From assembly GCA_018663035.1 (NCBI GenBank), contig JABJEX010000013.1:4409-68408 (forward strand): a stretch of DNA of 64,000 nucleotides, in the 5' to 3' direction. Positions 39,162-53,241 of the stretch are shown here, piece after piece. Source of the stretch: Porticoccaceae bacterium (GTDB taxonomy: Bacteria; Pseudomonadota; Gammaproteobacteria; Pseudomonadales; Porticoccaceae). The notes beneath the pieces were generated by a model, which was given only the letters and a program-made list of their open reading frames with translations, did no database searches and was not told where the DNA came from. The first letter of the stretch is position 1, and each line of letters begins with the position of its first letter. A program made the translations under genes and the position numbers.

Positions 39162-40418
39162 ATGCCCAACGAACAAATAATGGCCCATTGTCACAGAGAC
39201 TATAAATACAGAGTGTCTGCAATTTTTTTACTTATCGCTTTGTTGCTGGCCAGTCAAACTGGATATTCCGAATCTATTGCGCAACAACAGCCACTAACAG
39301 ATCCAGTGGCAGACTACATCGACGCAATAGATCAGGTTGAAGCCGAGTACAGCGCCTATTCAACAGAACTCTCCGATCTCTATCTAGGGTTAGGAAAATT
39401 ACTTTATTCTCGCCAGAGCTACCAGGAGGCTCGCCAAGCATTTCAGCGCGGAATGCAGGTAGAGCGCGTCAACTATGGGCTCGAAAGCCTATCTCAGGGA
39501 CCATACTTACTGTCTATCGCAGACACTGAAAGCTATCTGGGCAACTGGGAAGAATCTCAAAAAGCGCTAGAGAATCTTTACAATATTCATGAAGCAACCC
39601 ATGGTAAAAATACCATAGAGATGTTGCCCGTATTGGATCAGATGATGACCTGGTATCTGGATAGCTACGATGAACGCACGCCCGCTGGAGGCTACTCCAG
39701 TCTGGTGGTGACCGAACGTATCGCAATGCGCATGCACTACATCATGGACAATAAAATGCCCCTCGACCACCCAGATGCGGTGCACCGTTATCGACGATTG
39801 GGGCATCTACAGTACTTTATAGCCAACCATATTAAACAGCATGGTGAACCCACCGTATCCGGGATTACCATTTCCACGGGCTCATCTGTACGCGGCAGTG
39901 ATGACAGCACCTCTCATATGCATTTTAGGCGCGGAAAAATAGCACTGGAGAGAGTTGTGGAGTCTCTGGTACAGCGCCAGGAAGATAATGAAATTGAACA
40001 GGCAATGGCGTTAGCGGAGCTGGGAGACTGGTACCTGGTCTTTGGACAGAGGTACTCTGCTCAGGAAGCCTATCAATTGGCCTATGATGTCTTGGGGAAT
40101 ACAGATCACCCAGAGCAGATCCGTGAGCAGCTCTTTGGCCAGCCACAGGTGATCGCTTTTAAGATGGAAAAGGACCCGGTGCCATTAGAGCCCAACGAAA
40201 ATCAACTACAGTTTAATATGGTTGTTTCTTCTGCTGGAGTCCCACAGGACATTAAAATGGTTAGTCAGGATGCTAACCTCTCCGACGAGCAACTGATGGC
40301 TCTGCGTAAAAAAGTGCGTAAACAGAGATACAGACCGAAATTGGACGCTGGACTGACTCAGGATGCTCCCCATAGCGTTATCCTCAATAATCCGGCACTA
40401 CTACCAGATGACCAATGA
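39162..40418 (+). CDS. Secreted TPR protein with a C-terminal TonB-C-like domain
   Basis: Hydrophobic N-terminal signal/anchor and TPR-like helices. The C-terminus LQFNMVVSSAGVPQDIKMV...VRKQRYRPKLDAG resembles the TonB C-terminal pattern. Confidence 0.65.
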   Translation: MPNEQIMAHCHRDYKYRVSAIFLLIALLLASQTGYSESIAQQQPLTDPVADYIDAIDQVEAEYSAYSTELSDLYLGLGKLLYSRQSYQEARQAFQRGMQVERVNYGLESLSQGPYLLSIADTESYLGNWEESQKALENLYNIHEATHGKNTIEMLPVLDQMMTWYLDSYDERTPAGGYSSLVVTERIAMRMHYIMDNKMPLDHPDAVHRYRRLGHLQYFIANHIKQHGEPTVSGITISTGSSVRGSDDSTSHMHFRRGKIALERVVESLVQRQEDNEIEQAMALAELGDWYLVFGQRYSAQEAYQLAYDVLGNTDHPEQIREQLFGQPQVIAFKMEKDPVPLEPNENQLQFNMVVSSAGVPQDIKMVSQDANLSDEQLMALRKKVRKQRYRPKLDAGLTQDAPHSVILNNPALLPDDQ

Positions 40419-40426
40419 GATGCCAT

Positions 40427-41185
40427 ATGACAGTGAAGATTACAGCCAAAAACACATCTAAGCCTGCACCCTCAATACTGGCTTTAGCCTCTGTGGTTCT
40501 AACCAGTCTGATATTAGGCGCCTGCCAGATGCCGTCCTACAGTTCACCCACGGGACCATCTTTACCCTCGGGACCATCTGGCGGAAGTTCTGGTGGTGGA
40601 AGCTCTGGTGGCGGAAGCTCTGGTGGCGGAGGCTCAGGTGGCGGTAGTTCAGGTGGTGGAATGCCCAGCGGCGGTGGAATGCCCGGCGGAACAGATTCCG
40701 GTAGTGGCGGCCAATCCGTCGAAGACTTAGATCAGGCCCTGGATGATAGTCTAGATGGTTTTGATGATGCCATGGGTGGCCAGAGTTCGAGTCAGGGCCC
40801 AGACGAAATTGATATTCTCAGCCCTAGCGGAGGTGGCGGCGGCGTGCAAAGTGATAGCGACGCACCATTGTTTGAGGGTGCTGAAGGCGGCCCCTTGGGC
40901 GAAAGCAATTCAGATTACGATCAGCGCGCAGCCGAGGGTCCTAGCTCTGGGGACTCAGCCGAGAGCAGCGCTGGAGGCCAGGGTGCCCCGCAGGGACAAG
41001 AGAGCAGTACCGGCTCCGCCTCTGAAAATGAGCCGGGTGAGGCGATACCAATGCCCGAGGATATAGGCGACGGACAGGGTGATGATATAGTGCTCAGGCA
41101 GATTAGAGATGCGGCGATGAAAGAGACTGACCCCGTCCTGCGTGAAAAGCTTTGGGACGAATATCGTCGTATAAAGAATCAATAA
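40427..41185 (+). CDS. Gly/Ser/acidic low-complexity lipoprotein with a short helical C-terminal domain
   Basis: Lipobox LGAC, a long disordered linker, and C-terminal DDIVLRQIRDAAMKETDPVLREKLWDEY. Confidence 0.7.
   Translation: MTVKITAKNTSKPAPSILALASVVLTSLILGACQMPSYSSPTGPSLPSGPSGGSSGGGSSGGGSSGGGGSGGGSSGGGMPSGGGMPGGTDSGSGGQSVEDLDQALDDSLDGFDDAMGGQSSSQGPDEIDILSPSGGGGGVQSDSDAPLFEGAEGGPLGESNSDYDQRAAEGPSSGDSAESSAGGQGAPQGQESSTGSASENEPGEAIPMPEDIGDGQGDDIVLRQIRDAAMKETDPVLREKLWDEYRRIKNQ
40586..40660 (+). repeat. Coding 15-bp tandem repeat x5 encoding (S/G)SGGG
   Basis: agttctggtggtgga / agctctggtggcgga x2 / ggctcaggtggcggt / agttcaggtggtgga. Confidence 0.9.
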
Positions 41186-41217
41186 CAGACTAGGCTACGC
41201 AATAAATAGGACGCTTT

Positions 41218-42471
41218 ATGAAAACCAAATTCTCAGGGACTAGCCCAATCTATCTGCGCCGCTATTTGAAGCGGCAGTCAGAGTACCGCTGGTATTTCCT
41301 AGCTAGAATTATGTGTTGCTGTGCAGCTATTGCTCTCTCGGCATCATCAGCTTGGAGCGCCACAGATAAGATCACCTCCTCAACGGCACTAGTGCTCAAC
41401 ACGCCGAGTCAGCAAATCCCAGATGAGGCCCTGTTAGATGTAGGCATCGCCACGCTAAATGACGGCCTAGAACTCACTGACGAAGATGACACAGTTTTCC
41501 CTGAGGTTCGCTTCGCCGAAGCCATATATTTTTCCAACCAGCTGGCTAAGGTAATGGAAAAAAGTGGTGCCTGGGGTGCTATTCGCGTCACCCCCAGCGA
41601 CAACGTAATTATGGATCTCTACATCACCGGCACCATCCTGCAATCCGATGGCGAGACCATGGATTTAGATATCAATGTGCGGGACAGCAGTGGTCGACAG
41701 TGGTTTAGTAAGCGCTATAAACAGATCACAGGAAAGTACGCCTACGATCGACGCCTAAAAACTTTGGGCGACCCCTTTCAGAATTTATTTGTGAGAATTG
41801 CCAATGATCTGCTTGCCTACCGAGAGGGGCTTACTAGTCAGCAGGCCGCCGAGCTGCGCACTATATCTGAACTGCGTTTTGCAAAACTGTTTTCACCTCA
41901 GGCCTTCGATAACTATGTCAGTGAGAGACGTGATGGCACATTAAAAATTGATCGTCTGCCAGCGGAAAACGACAGCATCCTCCAGCGAGTGCGCAAAATT
42001 CGTGATCGCGATTACCTGTATATAGATACTATGCAAGATTACTACGATGGTTTTTCTCAACAGATGCATCTGGCCTACCAAGAGTTCCGCCGCGCCTCCT
42101 ATGACTCAGTGGTAAAAGCTCGACAGCTAGACAAACAGGGTAACCGCCGTATTATCGCTGGTATCGGCGCCATACTAGCGGGTATCTATGGCCGCTATGA
42201 AGCCAATACCAGCATCGCTAGCGATGCTGGTTCAGCGACCGCGGCTGTGGGAGGCTTTGTTCTCAAGTCAGGGCTAGAAAAAAAGCAGGAGGCCGCATCC
42301 TACAATGAGGCCGTGGCGGAGATGGGCTCATCACTGGAGGCTGAAATTGCACCTCAGGTGATTGAGCTAGAAGATCGTACAGTGACCCTCACCGGCACAG
42401 TGCAGGCCCAGTATCAGCAGTGGCAAGAGTTGCTACAAAAAATTTACAAGCAAGAACGAGGCGCTCTGTAG
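41218..42471 (+). CDS. Uncharacterised exported protein with C-terminal glycine-zipper-like helices
   Basis: 417-aa ORF in the operon; signal-like segment (AIALSASSAWSA) and IIAGIGAILAGI...AAVGGFVL hydrophobic Gly-rich helices. Confidence 0.7.
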   Translation: MKTKFSGTSPIYLRRYLKRQSEYRWYFLARIMCCCAAIALSASSAWSATDKITSSTALVLNTPSQQIPDEALLDVGIATLNDGLELTDEDDTVFPEVRFAEAIYFSNQLAKVMEKSGAWGAIRVTPSDNVIMDLYITGTILQSDGETMDLDINVRDSSGRQWFSKRYKQITGKYAYDRRLKTLGDPFQNLFVRIANDLLAYREGLTSQQAAELRTISELRFAKLFSPQAFDNYVSERRDGTLKIDRLPAENDSILQRVRKIRDRDYLYIDTMQDYYDGFSQQMHLAYQEFRRASYDSVVKARQLDKQGNRRIIAGIGAILAGIYGRYEANTSIASDAGSATAAVGGFVLKSGLEKKQEAASYNEAVAEMGSSLEAEIAPQVIELEDRTVTLTGTVQAQYQQWQELLQKIYKQERGAL

Positions 42472-42474
42472 CCT

Positions 42475-43893
42475 ATGCCTGAGGCCAAACAGCATACCCA
42501 GCAAAAATTTATTGTCGGTGGTTTATTACTGCTCGGGGGCTTTGTGTTTTTGCTGCTTCCCAATATGGTAACCGAGCCTTGGATTGCAGCTGATGATAGT
42601 TCAACGGCACCAGTGGCGCCCGCTCCTTTAGTTAGTCCATCCACAGCCGCAGAAAAAACCAAGTATCGACAGGACTCACAGAAAGTATTGGCTCAAATTA
42701 TCGTGGCACGCGATAGCCTTCAAGAACGTTCCGTGGAGTACTGGGGTGACTTTGATTTCCGTCAGGCGATAGCGCTGGTGGATCAGGGTGACGAACAGTA
42801 TGGCTATGGCAATTACCGCGAATCATTGGCGAGCTATCAACAGTCACTGCTTGAGCTTCAAAGGTTGCAAGATAAAGCGCAAATCACTCTGGAAAACGCT
42901 CTAGCCGACGCCTCCAACGCTATCGAAAACGCCCAGCCGGGAGATGTTGCCATTGCTCAACAGGCAGCAAACACTGCCATAACCATAGCTCCTGACGACA
43001 GTAGATCGCAGCAGATTCTTGCGCGCACCAGCCAATTGGAAGCACTCGTCGAGGCATTGCAACTGGGTGAACAGCATCTGCAAAGAAAAGAACTAGCAAC
43101 TGCTAAAGCGTACTTCCAAAAAGCGTTGGCTCTTGATGGCCAGCATAAAAAAGCTACTGCTGCGCTGAGCTCTGTAGACCAAGCCATAGTAGAGCAGACA
43201 TTTCGCGGCTATATGAGTCGCGGTTTTAAAAAACTTGAAGACAATAATTTCGATGCTGCCACTGCAGCCTTTAACGAAGCAGGTAGAATCTACACTAATC
43301 ATCCAGCTGTAGATCAGGCTCTTTCACAGTTAGAGACAAGGCGCTCACAACTTACTGTCAGTCGGCAGATGCGGGAGGCAGCCGCCTTTGAGCGCCAGGA
43401 AGACTGGCAAAAGGCGCTAGCGCTGTATCAGGCACTGTTAAAAACCGACCCCTCACTTACCGAGGCTAGCGTTAGAACCGTAGGCGTCACTGTGCGAGCC
43501 AATTTAGACGAACAACTAAAAATGGCGCTTAAAGACCCCCTAGCGCTGTCTTCACCTAATGCCTACAACAGAGCCCAGAGGCTGGTCACAGATGCAGACA
43601 GCATTAAAAACCCAGGGCCTAAACTGCAACAACAGGTCTCAGAATTAAAGCGGCTATTGCAACAGTCCACAGTAGCCGTGAACGTAGAGCTGAGATCCAA
43701 CAACCTAACTGAGGTCACATTGTTTAGAGTCGCCGAGCTGGGCACCTTCGAAAATACCTCATTACAGCTGCGCCCTGGGCGCTATATTGCCGCAGGCACC
43801 CGCCTAGGTTTTCGAGACGTGAGAGTTGAATTTACCATTAGCGGCGAGCCCCTAGATCAACCCATTTGGGTAAGCTGCGAAGAAGCAATCTAA
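42475..43893 (+). CDS. Membrane-anchored periplasmic TPR protein with a C-terminal PEGA-like beta domain
   Basis: One N-terminal TM helix, a long helical/TPR region, and LQLRPGRYIAAGTRLGFRDVRVEFTI. Confidence 0.75.
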   Translation: MPEAKQHTQQKFIVGGLLLLGGFVFLLLPNMVTEPWIAADDSSTAPVAPAPLVSPSTAAEKTKYRQDSQKVLAQIIVARDSLQERSVEYWGDFDFRQAIALVDQGDEQYGYGNYRESLASYQQSLLELQRLQDKAQITLENALADASNAIENAQPGDVAIAQQAANTAITIAPDDSRSQQILARTSQLEALVEALQLGEQHLQRKELATAKAYFQKALALDGQHKKATAALSSVDQAIVEQTFRGYMSRGFKKLEDNNFDAATAAFNEAGRIYTNHPAVDQALSQLETRRSQLTVSRQMREAAAFERQEDWQKALALYQALLKTDPSLTEASVRTVGVTVRANLDEQLKMALKDPLALSSPNAYNRAQRLVTDADSIKNPGPKLQQQVSELKRLLQQSTVAVNVELRSNNLTEVTLFRVAELGTFENTSLQLRPGRYIAAGTRLGFRDVRVEFTISGEPLDQPIWVSCEEAI

Positions 43894-44022: not shown

Positions 44023-46098
44023 GTGACTATGCTCGGAAAAAATAATAATCAGCATCTATCCGCTACAGACTTCACACCACTCGACCAGGTAGCTAGCCAA
44101 CGTCGTCTGCCATTTTCTCCCGGCGTATTGGCACTGGTTTTACTTGCCGCCAGTGCCGCTGTGATAATGCTATATCTGGTTATAGCTCGCGCGGTGATTT
44201 TTCAAACAGAGCCAGAGAGTGCCGAGATAACGATTAGCGGCCTTTCATTTAACATAGGTGACAATTATCTACTGTTGACCGGCGTCTATCAGGTTGAGGC
44301 CAGCGCTGATGGTTACCATCCCCTGACCCAGAATATCGAGGTCACCGAGCAAGCAACTCAGAACGTCAAACTGGAGCTACAACCATTGCCAGGCAACCTC
44401 AGTGTCAGCTCAGAACTGACCGAGATAGAGGTCAGTATTGATGATGAACTCCGATCAACAGTGCCAGGCACGATAGAGGGCATTAACCGTGGGCTGCATC
44501 AAATCGAGTTTAAAAAATACCGCTATTTTCCATTGCAGCAAGAAATTGACATAGTCGGCCTGGGCACCACCCAGTCTCTAAATGTCTCCTTATTGCCCGC
44601 CTGGGGTGAGATGCATTTTGACTCCCAACCTCAGGGTGCCGATCTATATATTGATGATCGACCTGTCGGCCAAACCCCCTTGAAAACCGAGGTGTTGGAA
44701 ACTGGCAGTAAACTCAGATTGGAATACCCAGGCTATAAAACCTATACCAAGCAGGTGACTGTTAAAGCGGGCACTTCGGAGCAACACGAACTGATTAAGA
44801 TGATAGTTTCGGACGGTACGCTGCGAATCAGCAGCATGCCAGAGGGCGCCAATATCACCATCGACAGTCAATTTTTTGGCACCACCCCCGTTGATCTACC
44901 CCTAGCACCTTTTAAACAATACGACGTTGGGTTGTTTCTGGAGGGCTATATAAAAACCACTAAAAAGGTCAGTCTGGAGCCGGAGAAAACCACTGCTATG
45001 CAGGTTAGGCTGCAGCCAAATATCGGTAGCATTGCCTTGACCATAAGCCCAGCTGATGCGCAGATATTGATCGACAATAGGGATCAGGGCACTGGTAGCC
45101 GTACCCTGTCATTAACTGCCAAGCCGCACACGCTCACAGTTACTAAGCCAGGCTACGAGCCTAAATCTCTAACGGTTACTCCTAGGCCAGGGCATCAGCA
45201 GGCGCTCAATATCAAACTACTGACTCTTGAAGATGCCTACTGGGCATCTCGCCCCCCTGTAATAAAGAGCCCAGTTGGCTCAGAGTTAAAGCTTTTCCGT
45301 CCACAGCAGAGCTTCATCCTGGGTGCACCTCGCCGGCAACCGGGTCGACGAGCCAATGAGGCCGAGCGCAACGTTGGTCTGGAGAGACCCTTTTACCTGG
45401 GACGCAAAGAAATCAGCAATACCCAGTTCCGACGATGGCAAGAGCACAGCTCCTCAGCCATTAAAGGCCAGTCATTAGATATGAATAACCAGCCAGTGGC
45501 CAACGTCTCCTGGGAACAGGCCGCCCTGTTCTGTAACTGGCTTAGTCGTCAGGAGGGGCTCCCACCCTTTTATCTGATTGAAGACGGACTGATCAGTGGC
45601 TTTGACTGGGAGTCTCATGGTTATCGCCTACCCACAGAGGCAGAATGGGCCTGGGCGGCCAAGGTAAACAACGATGGCAATTCAGAGATCTTCCCATGGG
45701 AGTCTGGGCTATACCCGCCGATCAATGTACTAGACAACTATGCAGATCAGAGTGCTGCCAAGTTTCTTAGCTTTACCATTGCGAACTACAACGATAACTA
45801 TCCAGTCTCTGCGGACATAGGTAGTTTTAAGCCCAATAATAAGGGGCTCTACAATATGAGTGGCAATGTCTCAGAATGGGTCAACGACTTCTATGATATA
45901 CGCCCACATCGCGGCGCGCCTATCATGGACCCTAGGGGCCCGATTAGTGGTAATCGTCATGTTATTCGTGGCGCTAGCTGGGCACTTGGATCACGCACTG
46001 AACTGCGCCTGAGTTACCGTCAGGCTGGCACAGACGGTCAACTGGATGTAGGCTTTAGAATCGCCCGCTATGTTGATAGCCCCGGAGTCACACCATGA
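44023..46098 (+). CDS. PEGA-repeat protein with a C-terminal FGE-sulfatase (SUMF1/C-lectin-fold) domain
   Basis: One TM helix and several PEGA repeats (SQPQGADLYIDDRPVGQTP; SSMPEGANITIDSQFFGTTP). FGE motifs EISNTQF, PVANVSWEQA, RLPTEAEW, GLYNMSGNVSEW, RGASW and GFRIAR. Confidence 0.9.
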   Translation: MTMLGKNNNQHLSATDFTPLDQVASQRRLPFSPGVLALVLLAASAAVIMLYLVIARAVIFQTEPESAEITISGLSFNIGDNYLLLTGVYQVEASADGYHPLTQNIEVTEQATQNVKLELQPLPGNLSVSSELTEIEVSIDDELRSTVPGTIEGINRGLHQIEFKKYRYFPLQQEIDIVGLGTTQSLNVSLLPAWGEMHFDSQPQGADLYIDDRPVGQTPLKTEVLETGSKLRLEYPGYKTYTKQVTVKAGTSEQHELIKMIVSDGTLRISSMPEGANITIDSQFFGTTPVDLPLAPFKQYDVGLFLEGYIKTTKKVSLEPEKTTAMQVRLQPNIGSIALTISPADAQILIDNRDQGTGSRTLSLTAKPHTLTVTKPGYEPKSLTVTPRPGHQQALNIKLLTLEDAYWASRPPVIKSPVGSELKLFRPQQSFILGAPRRQPGRRANEAERNVGLERPFYLGRKEISNTQFRRWQEHSSSAIKGQSLDMNNQPVANVSWEQAALFCNWLSRQEGLPPFYLIEDGLISGFDWESHGYRLPTEAEWAWAAKVNNDGNSEIFPWESGLYPPINVLDNYADQSAAKFLSFTIANYNDNYPVSADIGSFKPNNKGLYNMSGNVSEWVNDFYDIRPHRGAPIMDPRGPISGNRHVIRGASWALGSRTELRLSYRQAGTDGQLDVGFRIARYVDSPGVTP

Positions 46099-46334
46099 AA
46101 ACAGTCTTATTCTTGCTGCTAATGCCCCTGCTGGCACTAGCCCAACAACCGGATGCTGATACCAGCGGCCAGGGTACCAGCCCTGAGCCAATAGAAAGCC
46201 CTGAGCCAATAAACAGCCCTGAGCCGGAAGAAAGCCCTGAGCCTACAGAAAGCCCCGAACCCCAAGACATTGACTTCAAACCCAGCGAAGAGATATCTGA
46301 AGATTTCCCAGTTCCTCTTCCAGCAGACATATAA
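46095..46334 (+). CDS. Small secreted acidic Pro-rich protein
   Basis: Signal peptide (LLALA|QQ), five SPEPxx repeats and tail FKPSEEISEDFPVPLPADI; overlaps the upstream stop (ATGA). Confidence 0.75.
   Translation: MKTVLFLLLMPLLALAQQPDADTSGQGTSPEPIESPEPINSPEPEESPEPTESPEPQDIDFKPSEEISEDFPVPLPADI
46179..46268 (+). repeat. Coding 18-bp tandem repeat x5 encoding SPEPxx
   Basis: agccctgagccaatagaa / agccctgagccaataaac / agccctgagccggaagaa / agccctgagcctacagaa / agccccgaaccccaagac. Confidence 0.92.
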
Positions 46335-46360: not shown

Positions 46361-47182
46361 ATGAACAGTTCAACCAACCGCTCAACCAACGAGTTGTTTT
46401 TCCAGATAGTAGCACTGCTACTCGCGGTGATAATTGTCCACACCATCTTTGTCACTGTGGTGCGTCCCAACGCAGAGAGTACCATTCGCCAGCATGCCGA
46501 AATGGCTGCCGCTGGAGAGGACTACGTGGTGCCAAGATCATTTTTTATTGTCATTAAAGATCTTGAACAGGAAGCCTGTTTTATCCTGATGTTCTGGGCA
46601 CTGGCGATTATGGGCTACAAGACTCGCACCAGTATTCGTGAAAACAAAATGCTGCAAAAGCCACTAATCTCCATCGCTGAGGGTTCGCGAGTGCTACCAG
46701 AGGACGCAGCGCAGCTAGCTCGCCCATTGCAAGCATTACCCGAGGTAGAGCGCAGCTATCTGCTACCCCGCGCGCTGCAAACCGCTCTGACCAGATTTCA
46801 GGTTACAGCCAGCGTACAATTTGCTACCGAGGCAGTGACCAATGTCTGCGAAACTGAAAATGATCGGCTCGACTCTGAATTGTCCATGGTTCGCTACATA
46901 ACCTGGGCCATTCCCTCGATTGGATTTATTGGTACAGTGCGAGGTATTGGCGCGGCTCTGGGTCAGGCTCATGAAGCTATGCAAGGGAATATTGCTGGGG
47001 TTACTAGCAGCCTTGGAGTCGCCTTTAACTCAACATTTATCGCACTGCTAATCAGCATGGTGGTGATGTTCTTTATGTTTCAACTGCAACTTATTCAGGA
47101 ACGTCTGGTACTTGATTCTCAGGCTCACTGTGAAAATAACCTGCTGCGCTTTTTAAAGGCGCCCAAAGCGACGCAGTCCTAA
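46361..47182 (+). CDS. MotA/TolQ/ExbB proton-channel family protein
   Basis: AIPSIGFIGTVRGIG matches the TolQ/ExbB PxxGLxGTVxG motif, followed by LGVAFNSTFIALL. It carries extra N-terminal TM helices. Confidence 0.92.
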   Translation: MNSSTNRSTNELFFQIVALLLAVIIVHTIFVTVVRPNAESTIRQHAEMAAAGEDYVVPRSFFIVIKDLEQEACFILMFWALAIMGYKTRTSIRENKMLQKPLISIAEGSRVLPEDAAQLARPLQALPEVERSYLLPRALQTALTRFQVTASVQFATEAVTNVCETENDRLDSELSMVRYITWAIPSIGFIGTVRGIGAALGQAHEAMQGNIAGVTSSLGVAFNSTFIALLISMVVMFFMFQLQLIQERLVLDSQAHCENNLLRFLKAPKATQS

Positions 47183-48441
47183 TGACCACAGCTGTTTTAG
47201 ACCTCAATGATCAGAATCTGTTGATCCAGACAGAGGATGGTACCCTGTATGCAGAACCAGGCTTCGCTCAGCTGACCACCACAGGAATAGACACGGGTGA
47301 TCGTGCTAAAGACCGTGCCTGGAAAGAGCCACAACAGAGTTACAATGACTATTGGCGGCAACTGAATCAACTTCCACTGCCCAGCAGGCAGCCACTGGCT
47401 CGCCACCATGCAGATATCGCCTTTGCCCAGCTAAAGAGGCTATATGAGATCGCCGGCTCTCCAGAAGACCTTATTATTGCGGTACCAGGCAGTTTTTCCG
47501 ATCAACAATTATCCCTGCTGCTTGGTTTAGCCAGCGCCATACCCACTCGGGTAAAAGGCGTTATAGATAGTGCCCTTGCCTGCTGCCCGCAACAGCAAAC
47601 AACCCTTTTAGTAGAGCTACAGCTACAACAGGCAGTTATTAGTCTGATAGAAGAAAATCAGGGCATCAGAAGCATAAGCCAGCAAGAGGTGATACCAGAT
47701 CTTGGAATCTTGCATCTCTACAACGCCGCTGCTCGGCATATCAGTGAGCAACTTATCGCTGACTACCGCTATGACCCTTTGCACACCTCAATTGGCGAGC
47801 AGACAATTTATGATCAGCTACCAAATTGGTTAATGCAGCTGAGCTGGGCAGACGAGGTTTCATTCAATGTTCCCACAGCCCAGGGCGAGCTAAATTTGAT
47901 ACTTCGCAAACACCAGATTGCCGCACTATTTGAGGAACGTCTTGCCAGTTTAAATACCATTATCAAAAAACACCCTCAGGCCAACCTGTGTTTTTCTCAT
48001 GGTGCCGGTGTGATTCCCGCCCTACTGCCACAGTTTTCTGAGGCACAGGTCTGCGCGCAGAACGCCGGCATAGAGCAGTGTTTTAGACTGCAAGCTCAGT
48101 TATCAGGGGAACAGCTGCAGCGCGTTAGCCAGATACAAATACTCGAGCACACCGGTGAGACGCCGACTACGACACCGCATCATGCGACCCATCTGTTGTA
48201 TCAGAACCATGCCTACCCTCTCGATCATCCGATTAGCATCCATATCAAAGAGAATCAGCTAAGCCTGATTAGCGCGATTGATAACCGCGCCGCCTGTGTA
48301 CTGATTTTAGAGGAGCAAAAATTGAAAGCTCTGCATCAGCAGAGCGACCTTGAGGTAAAAGTGCCCAGCGTCTGCCAGCCGGGAAAAATCGTCCAGATCG
48401 CAGAGCACAGCCTGCGGCTTATTGAGGTAAGCAATGCCTAA
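47182..48441 (+). CDS. Cytoplasmic protein with a degenerate Hsp70/actin-like domain and an FHA-like C-terminus
   Basis: LIIAVPGSFSDQQLSLLLGLA...VKGVIDSALA parallels the DnaK motif AVITVPAYFNDAQR...VKRIINEPTAA. The C-terminus QPGKIVQIAEHSLRLIEV parallels the end of FHA domains. Confidence 0.6.
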   Translation: MTTAVLDLNDQNLLIQTEDGTLYAEPGFAQLTTTGIDTGDRAKDRAWKEPQQSYNDYWRQLNQLPLPSRQPLARHHADIAFAQLKRLYEIAGSPEDLIIAVPGSFSDQQLSLLLGLASAIPTRVKGVIDSALACCPQQQTTLLVELQLQQAVISLIEENQGIRSISQQEVIPDLGILHLYNAAARHISEQLIADYRYDPLHTSIGEQTIYDQLPNWLMQLSWADEVSFNVPTAQGELNLILRKHQIAALFEERLASLNTIIKKHPQANLCFSHGAGVIPALLPQFSEAQVCAQNAGIEQCFRLQAQLSGEQLQRVSQIQILEHTGETPTTTPHHATHLLYQNHAYPLDHPISIHIKENQLSLISAIDNRAACVLILEEQKLKALHQQSDLEVKVPSVCQPGKIVQIAEHSLRLIEVSNA

Positions 48442-49489
48442 AAAGCGTCGCAATATAGCCTTCAGTCTTTCCTTTCTGGATATTATGGCCTGTGGCTTTG
48501 GTGCTGTGACATTGCTGTTTTTAATTCTTCGCCACAATGCTGCCGAGGTGGTTACCCCAGATCTGCGTATCGCTGCAGAGGTAGACATGCTGCAGATGGA
48601 TATTCGCCAAGCCGAGGAAGAGAGAGTTGAGCTGCTCAATAGCCTTCAAGAAATTCAACTCCAGTTGGTTGAGGCTCAGGGCCTCTCACAAAGAGTGATT
48701 ACCGATCTTCAGGAACAGGAAAACAGTATTCAAAACGACCCCAATGATCTGGACAGGCTTCGCCGTCAAGTGGAACGCCTCGAAGAAGAGACTGCGCAGA
48801 TGGAAGAGGTGGAGTTTGGTGACCGCGTGCGCGAATTTCAGGGCGATGGCAATCGCCAATACCTGACGGGACTAAAATTAGGTGGGGAACGGGTTCTTAT
48901 TTTGGTGGATGGCTCCGCTAGTATGCTAGCAGATACAGTGGTCAATGCTGTGCGACGACGCAATATGGAGGACAGCCAAAAACAGCAGTCTGCAAAATGG
49001 CAGTGGACATTGCGGACGCTGGAATGGCTGCTCGCTCAACTACCGCCCAGCAGCCGCTTTCAAGTCTATGTATTTAATACGCAGGCACGGCCCGCTCTTG
49101 AAGGAACAGAGGGTGAGTGGCTGGACGCAGCAGATTCTCTTGCCCTAGAGCAGGTAGTTGCAGGTATCAAAGAATACTCTCCCGGTGAAGGCACCAGCCT
49201 GTTCAATGCCTTTACGGCTATTCGAGACTTTGAAGATAAACCGGATAACCTATTCCTGTTAACCGATGGACTGCCCACTCAGGGAAAAAGCCCGCCGAAA
49301 AAATATATGGTCAGTGGTAAACAACGCCGCAATCATTTTTCGACTGCCATCGATCTGCTGCCGAGGGGTCTACCTGTAAACACCATTTTGTTTCCCATGG
49401 AAGGTGATCCAGAGGCAGCAGCACTATTTTGGCAGACAGCATTAGATACCAATGGCGCGTTTATAGCGCCTTCAAGAGACTGGCCCTAG
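48434..49489 (+). CDS. ExbD/TolR-like anchored coiled-coil VWA protein 1
   Basis: Basic N-terminus, TM helix LSFLDIMACGFGAV (Asp16), a long coiled coil, and a VWA domain with MIDAS DGSAS and LLTDG. Confidence 0.85.
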   Translation: MPKKRRNIAFSLSFLDIMACGFGAVTLLFLILRHNAAEVVTPDLRIAAEVDMLQMDIRQAEEERVELLNSLQEIQLQLVEAQGLSQRVITDLQEQENSIQNDPNDLDRLRRQVERLEEETAQMEEVEFGDRVREFQGDGNRQYLTGLKLGGERVLILVDGSASMLADTVVNAVRRRNMEDSQKQQSAKWQWTLRTLEWLLAQLPPSSRFQVYVFNTQARPALEGTEGEWLDAADSLALEQVVAGIKEYSPGEGTSLFNAFTAIRDFEDKPDNLFLLTDGLPTQGKSPPKKYMVSGKQRRNHFSTAIDLLPRGLPVNTILFPMEGDPEAAALFWQTALDTNGAFIAPSRDWP

Positions 49490-49498
49490 GTTAATGCT

Positions 49499-50488
49499 AT
49501 GAAAAAACAACGTAGAGAACTTCAGGAAGCGAGCCTCTCATTTCTAGATGTCATTAGCTGTGGTTTTGGCGCCATAGTGCTGTTACTGGTAATCGCGAAA
49601 GTGGGTGACCCCTCAGCGCTAGAGGAGGCAGAAAAACAACTGCTTGGCTCAGTAAAGGACTATCAGGAAAAGCTCTTTGATATTCGTGGTGAGGCAGTGA
49701 TTCTCGATCGGCGTCTAAAATCCCGTCAGGAGCAGCTCTCAGATCTCAATGAGCGAATAGCCCGTCTCAAAGAAAAACTGGCCAGCGTTGCCAAACAATC
49801 CAACCAGCTGTCGCAATCCCAGTCACGAGAAAAAGAACAGCTACAGCTGGTGCTTCAGGTGCTCTCAGAAGAAATGCAGCGTCTGCTAGGGCCGGAATTT
49901 CAGCGCAAAAATCAGTTGATCGGCGGTATACCAGCAGACAGTGATTATATTATTTTTGTCATAGATACCTCAGGTAGCATGCAGGTAGCAGCCTGGGAAA
50001 AAGTAAAAAAGGAGATGCTCAATATTCTCGATATATACCCCGAGGTCAAGGGGCTTCAGGTGCTTAATGATATGGGCCAGTACATGTTCAGTGCAGAAGA
50101 AGGCCGCTGGATAGCAGACAGCCCTGGCATGAGAAAAAACATCATAGATCAGCTGACAAACTGGGCGCCCTTTAGTAACTCAAGCCCAGTGGAAGGAATC
50201 AATGCAGCTATTCGAACCTTTTACAAGCCGGGCCGTAAAATCAGTATCTATACCCTAGGTGATGATTTTCAGGGGCGTTCAATTCGCAAGGTAGTCAAAG
50301 CTGTTGACCAGTTAAATAAAGCCCATCGTGGCAGCGACCGACTAGTGCGCGTCCACGCTATTGGGTTCCCTGTGCACTTCCCCCCAGGGGGCACCCCAAG
50401 CGCATCGGCCGTTAAGTTCGCCGCATTGATGCGCGAACTAAGTTACAACAATGGAGGAACCTTTATCGGGTTAAATAGCCTTAACTAA
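49499..50488 (+). CDS. ExbD/TolR-like anchored coiled-coil VWA protein 2
   Basis: Basic N-terminus, TM helix LSFLDVISCGFGAI (Asp17), a long coiled coil, and a VWA domain with MIDAS DTSGS and TLGDD. Confidence 0.85.
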   Translation: MKKQRRELQEASLSFLDVISCGFGAIVLLLVIAKVGDPSALEEAEKQLLGSVKDYQEKLFDIRGEAVILDRRLKSRQEQLSDLNERIARLKEKLASVAKQSNQLSQSQSREKEQLQLVLQVLSEEMQRLLGPEFQRKNQLIGGIPADSDYIIFVIDTSGSMQVAAWEKVKKEMLNILDIYPEVKGLQVLNDMGQYMFSAEEGRWIADSPGMRKNIIDQLTNWAPFSNSSPVEGINAAIRTFYKPGRKISIYTLGDDFQGRSIRKVVKAVDQLNKAHRGSDRLVRVHAIGFPVHFPPGGTPSASAVKFAALMRELSYNNGGTFIGLNSLN

Positions 50489-50501: not shown

Positions 50502-51146
50502 ATGTTGAATATAAATAGACCTGACGGAAGCGGACAAAAAACCTCAATTAAAGTCCTTTTGGGCTTGGGTTTACTACTATTGCTGAGTGGCTGCAGCAGC
50601 TCCTCCTCGGTGACAGTAGATCAGGAATTTCCAACCGTGCTAGCTGTTCCCAAGCCGGTATCTGCCAGCATCGTCTTCGACGAAAGCTTCAGCACCTATC
50701 TTGCTCAGCCCAATGAAAAAACACAGATTGCTCTGGGGACTGCTCAGGTAAAACTGTTGCGCAACGCCTTTACCGGCCTCTTTGAAGAAGTCGAGTTTGT
50801 CAGCAGCAAAGAACAGATCACTAGTACCAATGGCCTTGTGATTATCCCCTCGGTGAGAGAGGTACAGGTCTCGACCCCATCAGACAATTATCTCAATGTA
50901 TTTGAAGTCTGGATCAAATATAACTTAGACATTGAAACCGCTGATGGCGAGACAATAGATAGCTGGTTTATGCCGGCCTATGGCAAAACCCCCGATGCGT
51001 TTATGGCCTCGAAATCAAGTGCCATTGAAGACGCCGCAGTCATTGCTCTTCGGGATGCTGGCGCCAAGTTGATGCTGGACTTTTATCGTATTCCTGCAAT
51101 TTACGGCTGGATGATGGAACAGCAAATATTGGAGGACTCAAAATGA
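50502..51146 (+). CDS. Uncharacterised lipoprotein
   Basis: Lipobox LSGC; 214 aa; translationally coupled to the next gene. Confidence 0.75.
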   Translation: MLNINRPDGSGQKTSIKVLLGLGLLLLLSGCSSSSSVTVDQEFPTVLAVPKPVSASIVFDESFSTYLAQPNEKTQIALGTAQVKLLRNAFTGLFEEVEFVSSKEQITSTNGLVIIPSVREVQVSTPSDNYLNVFEVWIKYNLDIETADGETIDSWFMPAYGKTPDAFMASKSSAIEDAAVIALRDAGAKLMLDFYRIPAIYGWMMEQQILEDSK

Positions 51147-51805
51147 ATACTCTGACCAAATTCACTGGTATTGGCCTATTTTTAATTGTTTTAAGTGGCT
51201 GTACAGCCACCACCACTATTGATGAGTATCGTCCATCGACTGAAGCCATAGACCTCAATAGTGACGAAAAAGTCGTTATTCTCGGCCGTCGTGATGCAGG
51301 CCACTACGAAACTGACCGAGAATTTATTCAATGTGTTGCCGGAAAAATGAAAGGTGCTGATATTTCAGTACTGCCCGAACAGACTTTTATTGATTCTATT
51401 TACCCCTGGTTTGAACCACGTACTGCGCCCAAGGGCCTGCCCAGACTCAAGCGTCTGATGCAAGACCCCAGTGTTAAAGCCCAGGTTGACCGGCAGTCAG
51501 TGCGCTATTTGGTATGGTTAGATGGTTCCACGGAAACTCTGGATCAGGGTGGCTCTATCAGCTGTGCTGTCGGCCCCGGTGGTGGTGGCTGCTTCGGCTT
51601 CGCCCAGTGGGACAAACTCTCAGTGTACGAAGCCATAGTCTGGGATATGACCAATCTTCAGGAAATGGGTCGACTTCGAGTGGACTCCGAAGGCACCTCT
51701 TATCTGATTGGTGCCGTAGCACCGATCCCCCTGCTAACACCCGTCAAGAGTGATGCCTGCTCCAGCTTGGGCAATCAGCTTAAATCATTTTTCTCGGCGC
51801 CTTAA
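51143..51805 (+). CDS. Uncharacterised Cys-containing lipoprotein
   Basis: Lipobox LSGC; contains ISCAVGPGGGGCFGF and two further Cys residues. Confidence 0.75.
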   Translation: MNTLTKFTGIGLFLIVLSGCTATTTIDEYRPSTEAIDLNSDEKVVILGRRDAGHYETDREFIQCVAGKMKGADISVLPEQTFIDSIYPWFEPRTAPKGLPRLKRLMQDPSVKAQVDRQSVRYLVWLDGSTETLDQGGSISCAVGPGGGGCFGFAQWDKLSVYEAIVWDMTNLQEMGRLRVDSEGTSYLIGAVAPIPLLTPVKSDACSSLGNQLKSFFSAP

Positions 51806-51810
51806 CTCTT

Positions 51811-53241
51811 ATGCCTTTACTGACTCAAACCTTTAAGCATCGCTGGTCGATAATCTTTATGGTCAGCTTACTAAGCCTGACTCCAGCGACTGCTCTGTCC
51901 GCAGTTAGCGGCGCTGACATCTACAAAGAGGTGCTAGAAAGCACCAATATTTATAAAGACGAAAAGCTACAGGCCTACATAGAAAGGCTCGGCAATGAAA
52001 TTGTCGCTCAATCAGAAATGGCTGGGGAGACCTTTATATTTACCCTGCTCGACTCGCCAGATCTCAATGCCTTTGCCACCAGAGATAACTATATCTACGT
52101 CAATCGCGGGCTGCTCAATTATGTCAGCAATGAGGCTCAGCTGGTTTCTGTACTTGCCCATGAGGTGGGCCATATCACTCGCAATCATGTGCGCGGACAG
52201 GAAGGCCAGGCTACGGGAGCGCAGATTCTCTCTACCATCGCTGCAGTGCTCTCTAATAGCTCAGAGGTATACGAGGCCGGCATGGCCTACGCCAACTCAT
52301 TGATACGAGGCCATGGCCGCCGCAACGAATTGGAGGCAGATGAAGCTGGTGCAGAATATATGGCCAAACTCGGATATGACCCCAACGAAATGCTGGGCAT
52401 GCTGTCAATAATGAAAGACTATGAGTCCCTGACAAAACAGCGCGCTAAATCCAAAGGTGCCAGCAAACAGACTTACCATGGGATTTTTTCTACGCATCCG
52501 CGCAATGACAGCCGTCTGCGTACCGTGGTCAGTAAAGCAAATGCCTTTAAATCTGAAATCACCAGGGATAATGGTGCCGCCAACTACAGAGCACTGACCG
52601 ACGGTCTAGTCTGGGGTGAAAACTTTCTTGCTAAGGAACAAAAACTGCAGCGCTTTTCAGATATGCGTCTGCGGGTACGCCTGGATTTTCCACCCGACTG
52701 GATCCAAGATAAGCCTGCTAGTGGGCTATTAGCCAGTGCCACAGCACCAGATAAAAAGGCTGACATGAGCATGCAGGTCATTGCCCGCACGGCTCAGAGC
52801 CCGGAAGAGTATCTCTACAACTATCTTAAAGTCTCGCAACTAAAAAATGGCACAGCCATAGCACCGGCGAGACTAAAGGGCTTTACCGGCATACTGCCCG
52901 GCCAAGAGGGTGATCCGGATACTCGAATCGCAGTAATTTATTACAAGTTGAATGCCTATTTGCTGAGTGGCACGGTTGAGGAGCCGACTAGCTTTAATGA
53001 TATTGATAAGAGCTTTATCGCCTCAATTAATACCTTTCGGCCGATTTCCAGTCGAGAAATTGCTGGCCAAAAACCTCAGACCGTTCGCTATGTAAAAGCC
53101 ACGGCCGCCACTACCTTTGAGGCACTGGCAAAGACCCTTAAACTGAGCAGCGCGGATGTTGAAGATCTGCGTATAATCAACGGCTACTACCCCAGTGGCG
53201 AGCCCGCCGCAGGCGAGTGGATTAAAATCTTTAAACGCTAG
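51811..53241 (+). CDS. M48-family zinc metalloprotease (BepA/YfgC-like) with a LysM-like C-terminus
   Basis: LNAFA, VLAHEVGH (HExxH), ELEAD and FSTHP motifs. The C-terminus TTFEALAK...LRIINGYYPSGEPAAGEWIKI is LysM-like. Confidence 0.9.
   Translation: MPLLTQTFKHRWSIIFMVSLLSLTPATALSAVSGADIYKEVLESTNIYKDEKLQAYIERLGNEIVAQSEMAGETFIFTLLDSPDLNAFATRDNYIYVNRGLLNYVSNEAQLVSVLAHEVGHITRNHVRGQEGQATGAQILSTIAAVLSNSSEVYEAGMAYANSLIRGHGRRNELEADEAGAEYMAKLGYDPNEMLGMLSIMKDYESLTKQRAKSKGASKQTYHGIFSTHPRNDSRLRTVVSKANAFKSEITRDNGAANYRALTDGLVWGENFLAKEQKLQRFSDMRLRVRLDFPPDWIQDKPASGLLASATAPDKKADMSMQVIARTAQSPEEYLYNYLKVSQLKNGTAIAPARLKGFTGILPGQEGDPDTRIAVIYYKLNAYLLSGTVEEPTSFNDIDKSFIASINTFRPISSREIAGQKPQTVRYVKATAATTFEALAKTLKLSSADVEDLRIINGYYPSGEPAAGEWIKIFKR

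Follow-up and report, generated by a model that had tools for sequence, protein, structure and literature searches.

We analyzed a 64,000-nucleotide stretch of DNA from a Porticoccaceae bacterium (Gammaproteobacteria, Pseudomonadales; GenBank assembly GCA_018663035.1, contig JABJEX010000013.1, positions 4,409 to 68,408 of the forward strand), hereafter the window, focusing on a putative ion-driven motor encoded at positions 46361-50488. This interval is filled by 4 densely packed genes on the + strand, encoding a channel subunit of the MotA/ExbB/TolQ family (the ring protein), a protein of 419 amino acids (aa) with an Hsp70-like fold, and 2 paralogous membrane-anchored proteins, VWA1 and VWA2, with von Willebrand factor A (vWA) domains that carry metal ion-dependent adhesion site (MIDAS) motifs. 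A first reading, made from the sequence alone (the original prediction), had described the interval as a motor core of 3 parts, an ExbB-like channel and 2 ExbD-like subunits with vWA heads. All 3 parts are present, but the headline of that reading made no mention of the fourth gene, at 47182-48441, which lies inside the interval. The features of the core are listed below, in window positions.

46361..47182, +, channel subunit of the MotA/ExbB/TolQ family (ring), 273 aa; Pfam PF01618 match
47182..48441, +, protein with the fold of the Hsp70 nucleotide-binding domain (NBD) and a C-terminal forkhead-associated (FHA)-like beta-sandwich, 419 aa; AlphaFold2 (AF2), Foldseek
48434..49489, +, VWA1, 351 aa: basic N-terminus, membrane helix with Asp16, coiled-coil stalk, vWA head with MIDAS
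48461..48532, +, membrane ("transpore") helix of VWA1, FSLSFLDIMACGFGAVTLLFLILR; Asp16 codon at 48479-48481; Cys20 is Asp+4
48563..48814, +, coiled-coil stalk of VWA1, residues 44-127; AF2 helices, heptad power
48881..49486, +, vWA domain of VWA1; MIDAS D159-G-S161-A-S163 at 48908-48922, plus D278
49499..50488, +, VWA2, 329 aa, paralog of VWA1 with the same architecture
49529-49597, +, membrane helix of VWA2; Asp17 codon at 49547-49549; Cys21
about residues 37-135 of VWA2, +, coiled coil; heptad power, coiled-coil family matches
49964-49978, +, MIDAS of VWA2, D156-T-S158-G-S160, plus S228 and D255

The stop codon of the ring gene and the start codon of the 419-aa gene share 1 nucleotide (TAATG); VWA1 overlaps the preceding 419-aa gene by 8 nucleotides and has a GAGG sequence 7 nucleotides 5' of its ATG, and only 9 nucleotides separate VWA1 from VWA2. 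The ring, VWA1, and VWA2 genes are real and translationally coupled. A terminator and promoter scan yielded no excess of promoters over the shuffled expectation and was uninformative.

Domain architecture of VWA1 and VWA2

The N-termini of the 2 proteins read MPKKRRNIAFSLSFLDIMACGFGAV in VWA1 and MKKQRRELQEASLSFLDVISCGFGAI in VWA2, with Asp16 and Asp17 both encoded by GAT, and the basic patch, the near-identical membrane helix, and the 2 aspartates occupy exactly the positions given in the original prediction. Neither helix (SFLDIMACGFGAV in VWA1, SFLDVISCGFGAI in VWA2) contains the SHLS motif of the TonB/TolA type or a histidine. VWA1 and VWA2 are paralogs with 25% identity overall (BLASTP, E = 4e-15), and their membrane helices, identical at 14 of 23 residues (61%), are the best conserved segment of the pair. 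From the KKRR that precedes the helix, the positive-inside rule predicts periplasmic vWA heads, a topology shared with ExbD, TolR, and MotB.

The region between helix and head has a hydrophobicity power at period 3.5 of 99.7 in VWA1 (residues 44-127) and 84.4 in VWA2 (residues 37-135), against 12 +/- 12 for shuffled sequences, with none of 2,000 shuffles reaching the observed power; such a 3.5-residue period indicates that the stalk is a coiled coil rather than a lone amphipathic helix. The AF2 model of VWA1, built on a 32-row alignment with a mean predicted local distance difference test (pLDDT) of 83, comprises a helix at residues 12-35, helices at 44-101 and 103-127, and an alpha/beta domain at 150-351 modeled with a pLDDT above 90. 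The best matches of this model in the PDB (Foldseek) are all vWA or integrin-I domains, namely those of CLCA1, ITIH1, BatB, and LFA-1, and the Pfam family VWA_3 scores 26.9 bits on VWA1, just under its cut-off of 27. The MIDAS motifs are DGSAS in VWA1 (residues 159-163) and DTSGS in VWA2 (residues 156-160). Heptad signal, modeled fold, and motifs thus bear out the succession of a coiled coil of about 80-90 aa and a vWA domain with a DxSxS motif that had been read from the translations, and an intact MIDAS on a Rossmann-like alpha/beta fold predicts that the heads would bind metal.

The vWA heads had further been proposed to stand in place of the usual periplasmic domain, which agrees both with the Foldseek matches and with the searches of Pfam and NCBIfam, where neither protein matched the ExbD/TolR domain (PF02472). 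The OmpA domain likewise had no Pfam match in VWA1 or VWA2. Judged by their sequences, VWA1 and VWA2 appear to act as ExbD/TolR-like proteins at the level of the helix while standing outside the ExbD/TolR family.

Conservation of the aspartate and of the metal site

Relatives of VWA1 were retrieved from 1.84 billion representatives at 50% identity, 266 of which matched at E <= 1e-30, and residues were counted in the ungapped rows of 118 full-length representatives clustered at 50% identity; the counts for VWA2 are based on 85 orthologues. The motor reading depended on the aspartates being conserved among homologues, and they are: Asp16 of VWA1 is present in 107 of 107 rows and Asp17 of VWA2 in 85 of 85. 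Other helix residues are nearly as constant, with Cys20, Gly21, and Gly23 of VWA1 retained in 108, 111, and 113 of 113 rows, respectively, and Cys21 and Gly24 of VWA2 in 85/85 each, such that the helix motif CGFGA is invariant or nearly so. The MIDAS residues, whose invariance had also been anticipated, behave in the same way in both paralogs. In VWA1, Ser161 and Asp278 are found in 119/119 rows, Ser163 in 112/119, and Asp159 in 111/119, with Glu in 7, and the consensus of the vWA region includes GGTNL; in VWA2, Asp156, Ser158, Ser160, Ser228, and Asp255 are each found in all 85.

One part of the original prediction fared less well. The cysteine shared by the 2 helices is indeed present in both paralogs and nearly invariant, but the suggestion that it cross-links the dimer found no support: the residue, at Asp+4, shares a helix face with the aspartate and lies in the half of the membrane next to the reducing cytoplasm. 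A disulfide through this cysteine is unlikely, and a role in packing or in the ion path is more plausible.

Gene callers often start VWA1 orthologues at Met18 (MSCGLGAV), 2 residues past the aspartate, as in L017:10716-11786, P0133, P0145, and P0292. Such late-called starts cut off the basic patch and the aspartate, and database copies consequently under-report the Asp-bearing helix.

The ring protein

The product of 46361-47182 matches the Pfam family MotA_ExbB (PF01618) with E = 3.8e-13 and 49.7 bits, against a cut-off of 22.9 (51.5 bits in a six-frame search of the genome), and profile-profile comparison (hhalign) links it to the TolQ/ExbB profile of the same genome with E = 2.7e-5, in line with the ExbB-like channel initially proposed. 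Kinship was detected by these 2 approaches only. The hhalign alignment places Thr192 opposite the Thr of FGTVWGIM, which is the first pore Thr of TolQ/ExbB. The motif containing Thr192, WAIPSIGFIGTVRGIG, is invariant in 15 ring orthologues, and Thr192 itself, Pro185, and Thr225 are among the residues invariant in this set. The last helix bears a polar cluster, N223-S224-T225, that is invariant or nearly so, and R145 and T149 are invariant in the cytoplasmic loop. The protein has 3 or 4 membrane helices and a small cytoplasmic part of about 85 residues.

Genomic linkage, missing partner, and evolutionary history

The distribution of the pair follows that of the ring subfamily. Among 300 evenly sampled Gammaproteobacteria, VWA1 occurs in 22 genomes, and a full-length ring orthologue (E <= 5e-45) adjoins it in 22/22, whereas 0 of the 278 genomes without VWA1 contain a full-length ring orthologue, 5 of them giving weak partial matches only. 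Across a synteny sample of 14 distant and 80 closer loci, the order ring-(419-aa gene)-VWA1-VWA2 is constant, the exception being L022, where the ring gene follows VWA2, and VWA1 and VWA2 stand in tandem in all loci with enough flanking sequence. VWA2 extends beyond the Gammaproteobacteria to a family elsewhere in the same phylum. Cultivable candidate carriers include Microbulbifer, Congregibacter, Pseudohalioglobus, and Methylophaga.

Conventional partners are missing from this neighborhood. No ExbD, TolR, or MotB gene lies beside the MotA-like gene in about 90 related loci; ExbD (PF02472) and MotB_plug (PF13677) have no match on the 95-kb contig that carries the window, and MotB_plug has none anywhere in the genome. 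The six-frame search recovered 5 MotA_ExbB genes and 4 ExbD genes in the genome. TolQ, TolR, and TolA are encoded together on contig C80, C70 carries a group of 2 ExbB-like genes, an ExbD gene, and a TonB-like gene, and an ExbB gene at the end of C98 plausibly joins an ExbD gene at the end of C48. The original claim of a ring gene accompanied by a pair of vWA genes instead of a conventional partner is thereby upheld.

In a maximum-likelihood tree of 23 pairs, VWA1 and VWA2 form 2 clades with 100/100 support each, which points to a single ancient duplication followed by retention of both copies everywhere; this history fits a heterodimer. With this domain architecture, the invariance of the Asp and MIDAS residues, the lack of an ExbD or MotB gene in the cluster, the perfect co-occurrence and adjacency, and the ancient, retained duplication, VWA1 and VWA2 very probably replace ExbD/TolR/MotB in the adjoining MotA/ExbB-type channel.

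The 5 genomes with partial matches to the ring subfamily (G022, G029, G045, G128, and G148; E from 1e-12 to 1e-22) have no vWA pair, and these relatives may belong to further uncharacterised motors with other partners.

A probable motor with paired vWA heads

We consider it probable that the locus encodes an ion-driven motor of the MotA/ExbB/TolQ type, presumably of 5:2 stoichiometry, in which the ring pore houses the VWA1 and VWA2 helices, ion flow via the aspartates turns the pair, and the stalks link it to MIDAS heads acting on an envelope partner. The MotA-like protein would form the outer ring, presumably as a pentamer, and its central pore would hold the 2 N-terminal helices in the place that ExbD, TolR, or MotB takes in known motors. 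The invariant aspartate of each helix would bind the ion, facing Thr192 and N223-S224-T225 of the ring, and upon ion flow the pair would turn relative to the ring. The coiled-coil stalks, each of roughly 85-100 residues, would carry this movement about 12-15 nm into the periplasm, where the vWA heads would grip a partner via their metal sites, with the PEGA-FGE protein, the lipoproteins, and the small acidic secreted protein encoded nearby (see below) as candidates. Pore insertion, stoichiometry, heterodimer formation, rotation, the coupling ion (H+ or Na+), and the ligand are those elements of the model that we infer.

Several results weigh against this reading. Comparison of the VWA family with the TolR of the same genome by hhalign gave no N-terminal match, so that the resemblance of the helices is at the level of the motif only. 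The second Thr of TolQ falls opposite L218 in the extended hhalign alignment or opposite N223 in the motif alignment, and in neither opposite T225. No solved ExbB, TolQ, or MotA chain in the PDB was found at E < 1 with the ring sequence or its profile (hmmsearch); being beyond the reach of the profile, these chains mark the ring as a divergent branch. The genome also encodes an orphan ExbD (C32:17204-17581), which has no adjoining ExbB-like gene and lies next to the apparent end of a TonB-dependent receptor gene. In favor of the reading, the spacers between Asp and MIDAS, which span 132-156 residues in VWA1 and 131-145 in VWA2, co-vary across 72 loci with r = 0.88; this value is only suggestive of paired stalks, being uncorrected for phylogeny and based on perhaps 5 or 6 independent changes.

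Some of these points would suit a different explanation, according to which the vWA proteins are anchored periplasmic scaffolds or adhesins comparable to BatA/BatB, the ring works with an unlinked ExbD or alone, and the aspartate serves another purpose. The structures nearest to the vWA head include that of BatB, the orphan ExbD could be such an unlinked partner, and the helix has no statistical homology to TolR. Yet another purpose would hardly account for a charged residue that is present in 192 of 192 helices and at a membrane depth matching that in ExbD, TolR, and MotB; the helix is the segment in which the paralogs remain most alike (61% versus 25% overall identity), their co-occurrence with the ring subfamily is perfect, and the orphan ExbD adjoins a gene resembling those for TonB-dependent receptors. 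We regard a scaffold role of this kind as highly improbable.

The composition of the pair raises a second alternative. VWA1 and VWA2 could each form homodimers, giving 2 kinds of 5:2 complex with different heads, as might be expected from the axles of ExbD, TolR, and MotB, which are known to be homodimers, and none of the computed results directly separates homo- from hetero-pairing. What makes this arrangement unlikely is that both paralogs are kept, adjoining and in the same order, in about 90 loci, that they descend as 2 clades from one ancient duplication, and that their stalk lengths change together; the published AlphaFold3 (AF3) model of such a complex was likewise built with one copy of each (PMC12204202).

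The Hsp70-fold/FHA protein

The gene located between the ring and VWA1 genes (47182-48441) encodes a protein for which AF2 predicted, with a pLDDT of 91.6, the fold of an Hsp70 NBD followed by a C-terminal beta-sandwich. The top Foldseek matches are NBDs of Hsp70/DnaK (E down to 3e-17, template modeling score 0.6-0.7). Pfam gave no match on the 419-aa protein of the window, and FHA was matched in 4 of 43 orthologues, with a best E value of 5e-12. No membrane segment was found in the protein. At the positions that we take to be those of the DnaK motifs, the N-terminal LDLND keeps its Asp, with D10 nearly invariant, and the stretch expected to form the DLGGGT loop reads VELQLQQ, without glycines, as aligned by eye rather than by a computed DnaK alignment. 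On these sequence features, the protein may be a pseudo-ATPase. The gene is missing from L017-L020, L024, and L026, several of which are otherwise complete, and is accordingly an optional member of the system.

The position of this gene bears on a third alternative, in which the vWA pair acts as a true stator: its heads would hold a fixed envelope structure, the ring would turn, and the work would be delivered on the cytoplasmic side, for instance to the Hsp70-fold/FHA protein. MotAB is established to work in this manner, with MotB attached to the cell wall, and the presence among the motor genes of a gene for a cytoplasmic protein, translationally coupled to the ring gene, together with the invariant R145 and T149 in the cytoplasmic loop of the ring, would fit such an output. 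The gene is, however, missing from the complete systems L017, L018, L019, L024, and L026, all other conserved partners are envelope proteins, and the cytoplasmic part of the ring, at about 85 residues, is small. We therefore judge a cytoplasmic output to be rather improbable. The original prediction spoke of a stator; the pair may either be held still, as in MotB, or turn, as in GldM and in the proposal of PMC12204202, which is the motion assumed in our preferred model.

Relationship to known systems

The ExbB-ExbD and TolQ-TolR motors share with the locus the Pfam family of the ring and a partner with a basic N-terminus, an aspartate near the cytoplasmic side of a single helix, and a periplasmic C-terminus. 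They differ in that the partner here carries a coiled coil and a vWA domain instead of the PF02472 domain, that there are 2 distinct partners rather than 1, that no third subunit resembling TonB or TolA was identified here, and that the ring is too divergent for a profile search to arrive at solved ExbB/TolQ chains. GldL-GldM, which serves type 9 secretion (T9SS) and gliding in Bacteroidota, is a motor of the 5:2 type in which a long periplasmic stalk runs from the inner pair toward the GldK/GldN ring, an outer assembly. A long-stalked inner pair is also what we predict here, and a neighboring gene encodes a protein with the formylglycine-generating enzyme (FGE)-sulfatase fold of GldK/PorK. 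The charged residues of GldM, however, are arranged otherwise, its stalk is all-beta rather than a coiled coil followed by vWA, no other T9SS gene is present here, and the GldK match is partial and below the cut-off, so that the comparison is one of analogy only.

The gliding machinery of Myxococcus combines one TolQ-like ring protein, AglR, with 2 different TolR-like partners, AglQ and AglS. It thus resembles the present system in having 2 unlike partners, whereas AglQ and AglS themselves are short and lack both a coiled coil and a vWA domain. The vWA adhesin of the Agl system, CglB, is a separate outer-membrane lipoprotein (PMC9946355). BatA and BatB of the Bacteroides aerotolerance operon, the latter being a top structural match, are membrane-anchored periplasmic vWA proteins with a MIDAS, as are VWA1 and VWA2, but their partners are MoxR and DUF58 proteins and they have no MotA-like gene. 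The Bat anchors are not known to carry the Asp motif.

The closest precedent is computational. The study [quoted passage not shown] (Mol Biol Evol 2025, section 8, Fig. 4c-d; PMC12204202) described "transpore-helix vWA" (TPH-vWA) pairs encoded next to tolQ-like genes in Proteobacteria and Verrucomicrobia. These are heterologous pairs with a conserved Asp helix and without a tolR, exbD, or motB gene, for which AF3 models of 5:2 complexes, predicted from a seed from Idiomarina, showed the Asp pair ringed by conserved Thr residues; the pair was proposed to turn, and the authors state that no deletion phenotype has been reported (PMC12204202). The locus conforms to this class in its tethered vWA pair, linked tolQ-like gene, absence of tolR/exbD/motB, Asp helix without SHLS, conserved ring Thr, and occurrence in Proteobacteria. 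The motor reading is thus anticipated by that paper, the single one found by full-text search to describe the arrangement. Its text is without the wider gene cluster, comprising genes for the PEGA-FGE, tetratricopeptide repeat (TPR), lipoprotein, and M48 proteins, without the Hsp70-fold/FHA gene, and without the invariant Cys. New here are this wider conserved cluster of PEGA-FGE, TPR, lipoprotein, and M48 protease genes and the optional Hsp70-fold/FHA gene.

None of the homologues listed in our searches was named as Idiomarina: a search with the profile of the distant subclade had Methylophaga and Candidatus Endobugula among the names listed, and exact look-ups of homologues returned Methylophaga and Salinisphaera-type names or none. 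The C-terminal domain of TolA from I. loihiensis matched the candidate genomes at only about 40%, indicating that they are not Idiomarina.

A wider conserved gene cluster

The motor genes are embedded in a larger set of genes on the same strand.

40415..43893, +, lipoprotein rich in Gly/Ser and with a conserved motif at its C-terminus, 417-aa protein, and TPR protein; synteny, TPR Pfam matches
44023..46098, +, single-pass PEGA-FGE protein with 5 PEGA repeats and, at the C-terminus, a GldK/PorK-like domain of the FGE-sulfatase fold; PEGA 5e-51, FGE-sulfatase 3.7e-34
50502..53241, +, two lipoproteins (214 and 220 aa) and M48 metalloprotease; Peptidase_M48 5.5e-33

The upstream set thus comprises the Gly/Ser-rich lipoprotein, the 417-aa protein, the TPR protein, the PEGA-FGE protein, and a small acidic secreted protein, and the downstream set the 2 lipoproteins, the M48 protease, and a PpiC-like protein. 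The PEGA-FGE protein is the most constant neighbor of the motor genes, its gene lying upstream of them in every distant locus but L020 (13 of 14) and in almost every one of the 80 closer loci for which enough upstream flank is available. It matches the NCBIfam family GldK partially (1.7e-27; 96.8 bits against a cut-off of 350) and GldJ also partially and far below the cut-off. Orthologues of the lipoprotein, 417-aa, and TPR genes are found in unchanged order in 12-13 of 14 distant loci. Downstream, the 2 lipoproteins and the M48 protease recur in most of the 80 closer loci. Profile searches of the PDB with the 417-aa protein and both lipoprotein families returned no match. The conserved partners other than the Hsp70-fold protein carry a signal peptide, a lipobox, or a single N-terminal anchor, which identifies them as envelope proteins.

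Two of the smaller products have distinctive sequences. Between the PEGA-FGE and ring genes, 46095-46334 encodes a secreted acidic protein of 79 aa with SPEP-type repeats, and weakly similar open reading frames occupy this place in many, though not all, loci. The 220-aa lipoprotein (51143-51805), for which neither Pfam nor the PDB yielded a relative, has 5 invariant Cys residues besides the lipobox Cys and a conserved GPGGxGCFGF motif.

The gammaproteobacterial genome G191 contains 2 complete, strongly diverged copies of the system (L024 and L025), of which only one includes the Hsp70-fold gene and the lipoprotein genes downstream. Full synteny, at 45-74% identity to the window, is also seen in L041, L085, L090, L097, and L102, which are labeled as Rhodothermales, Saprospiraceae, Phenylobacterium, Acidobacteriota, and Myxococcales; this suggests that gammaproteobacterial contigs were mis-binned or that the cluster was transferred recently. 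A reading of the cluster as a defense system was set aside, as PADLOC gave only a marginal match to ZorA (E = 0.004) and coiled-coil noise.

More tentatively, the motor core might only drive a larger and hitherto undescribed machine that spans the envelope and is encoded by the whole cluster, a possibility to which we would give somewhat less than even weight. Its core partners would be the Gly/Ser-rich lipoprotein and the 417-aa, TPR, and PEGA-FGE proteins, and its frequent partners the small acidic secreted protein, the 2 downstream lipoproteins, and the M48 protease. The heterodimeric coiled coil would turn and show its 2 different MIDAS heads to a periplasmic assembly based on the GldK-like FGE protein, a parallel to GldM-GldK/N that would have evolved independently in Proteobacteria, and in some lineages an Hsp70-fold pseudo-ATPase with an FHA domain reading phosphothreonine might provide gating from the cytoplasm.

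Significance

Ion-driven 5:2 motors power flagella, TonB-dependent uptake, maintenance of the envelope by Tol-Pal, gliding, type 9 secretion, and Zorya phage defense, and each new output module of these motors has revealed new biology. As far as sequence goes, the interpretation given in the original prediction is supported, but it was anticipated: the locus adds nothing conceptual beyond the prediction of 2025 and instead provides a clean, complete example of the system, in which conservation is quantified and the partner genes are defined for experimental work. Among marine Gammaproteobacteria the family is widespread, being present in about 7% of the sampled genera and comprising about 260 clusters at 50% identity. 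If the model is true, force would be applied to the periplasm in a novel manner, by an axle ending in integrin-like, metal-dependent adhesion domains.

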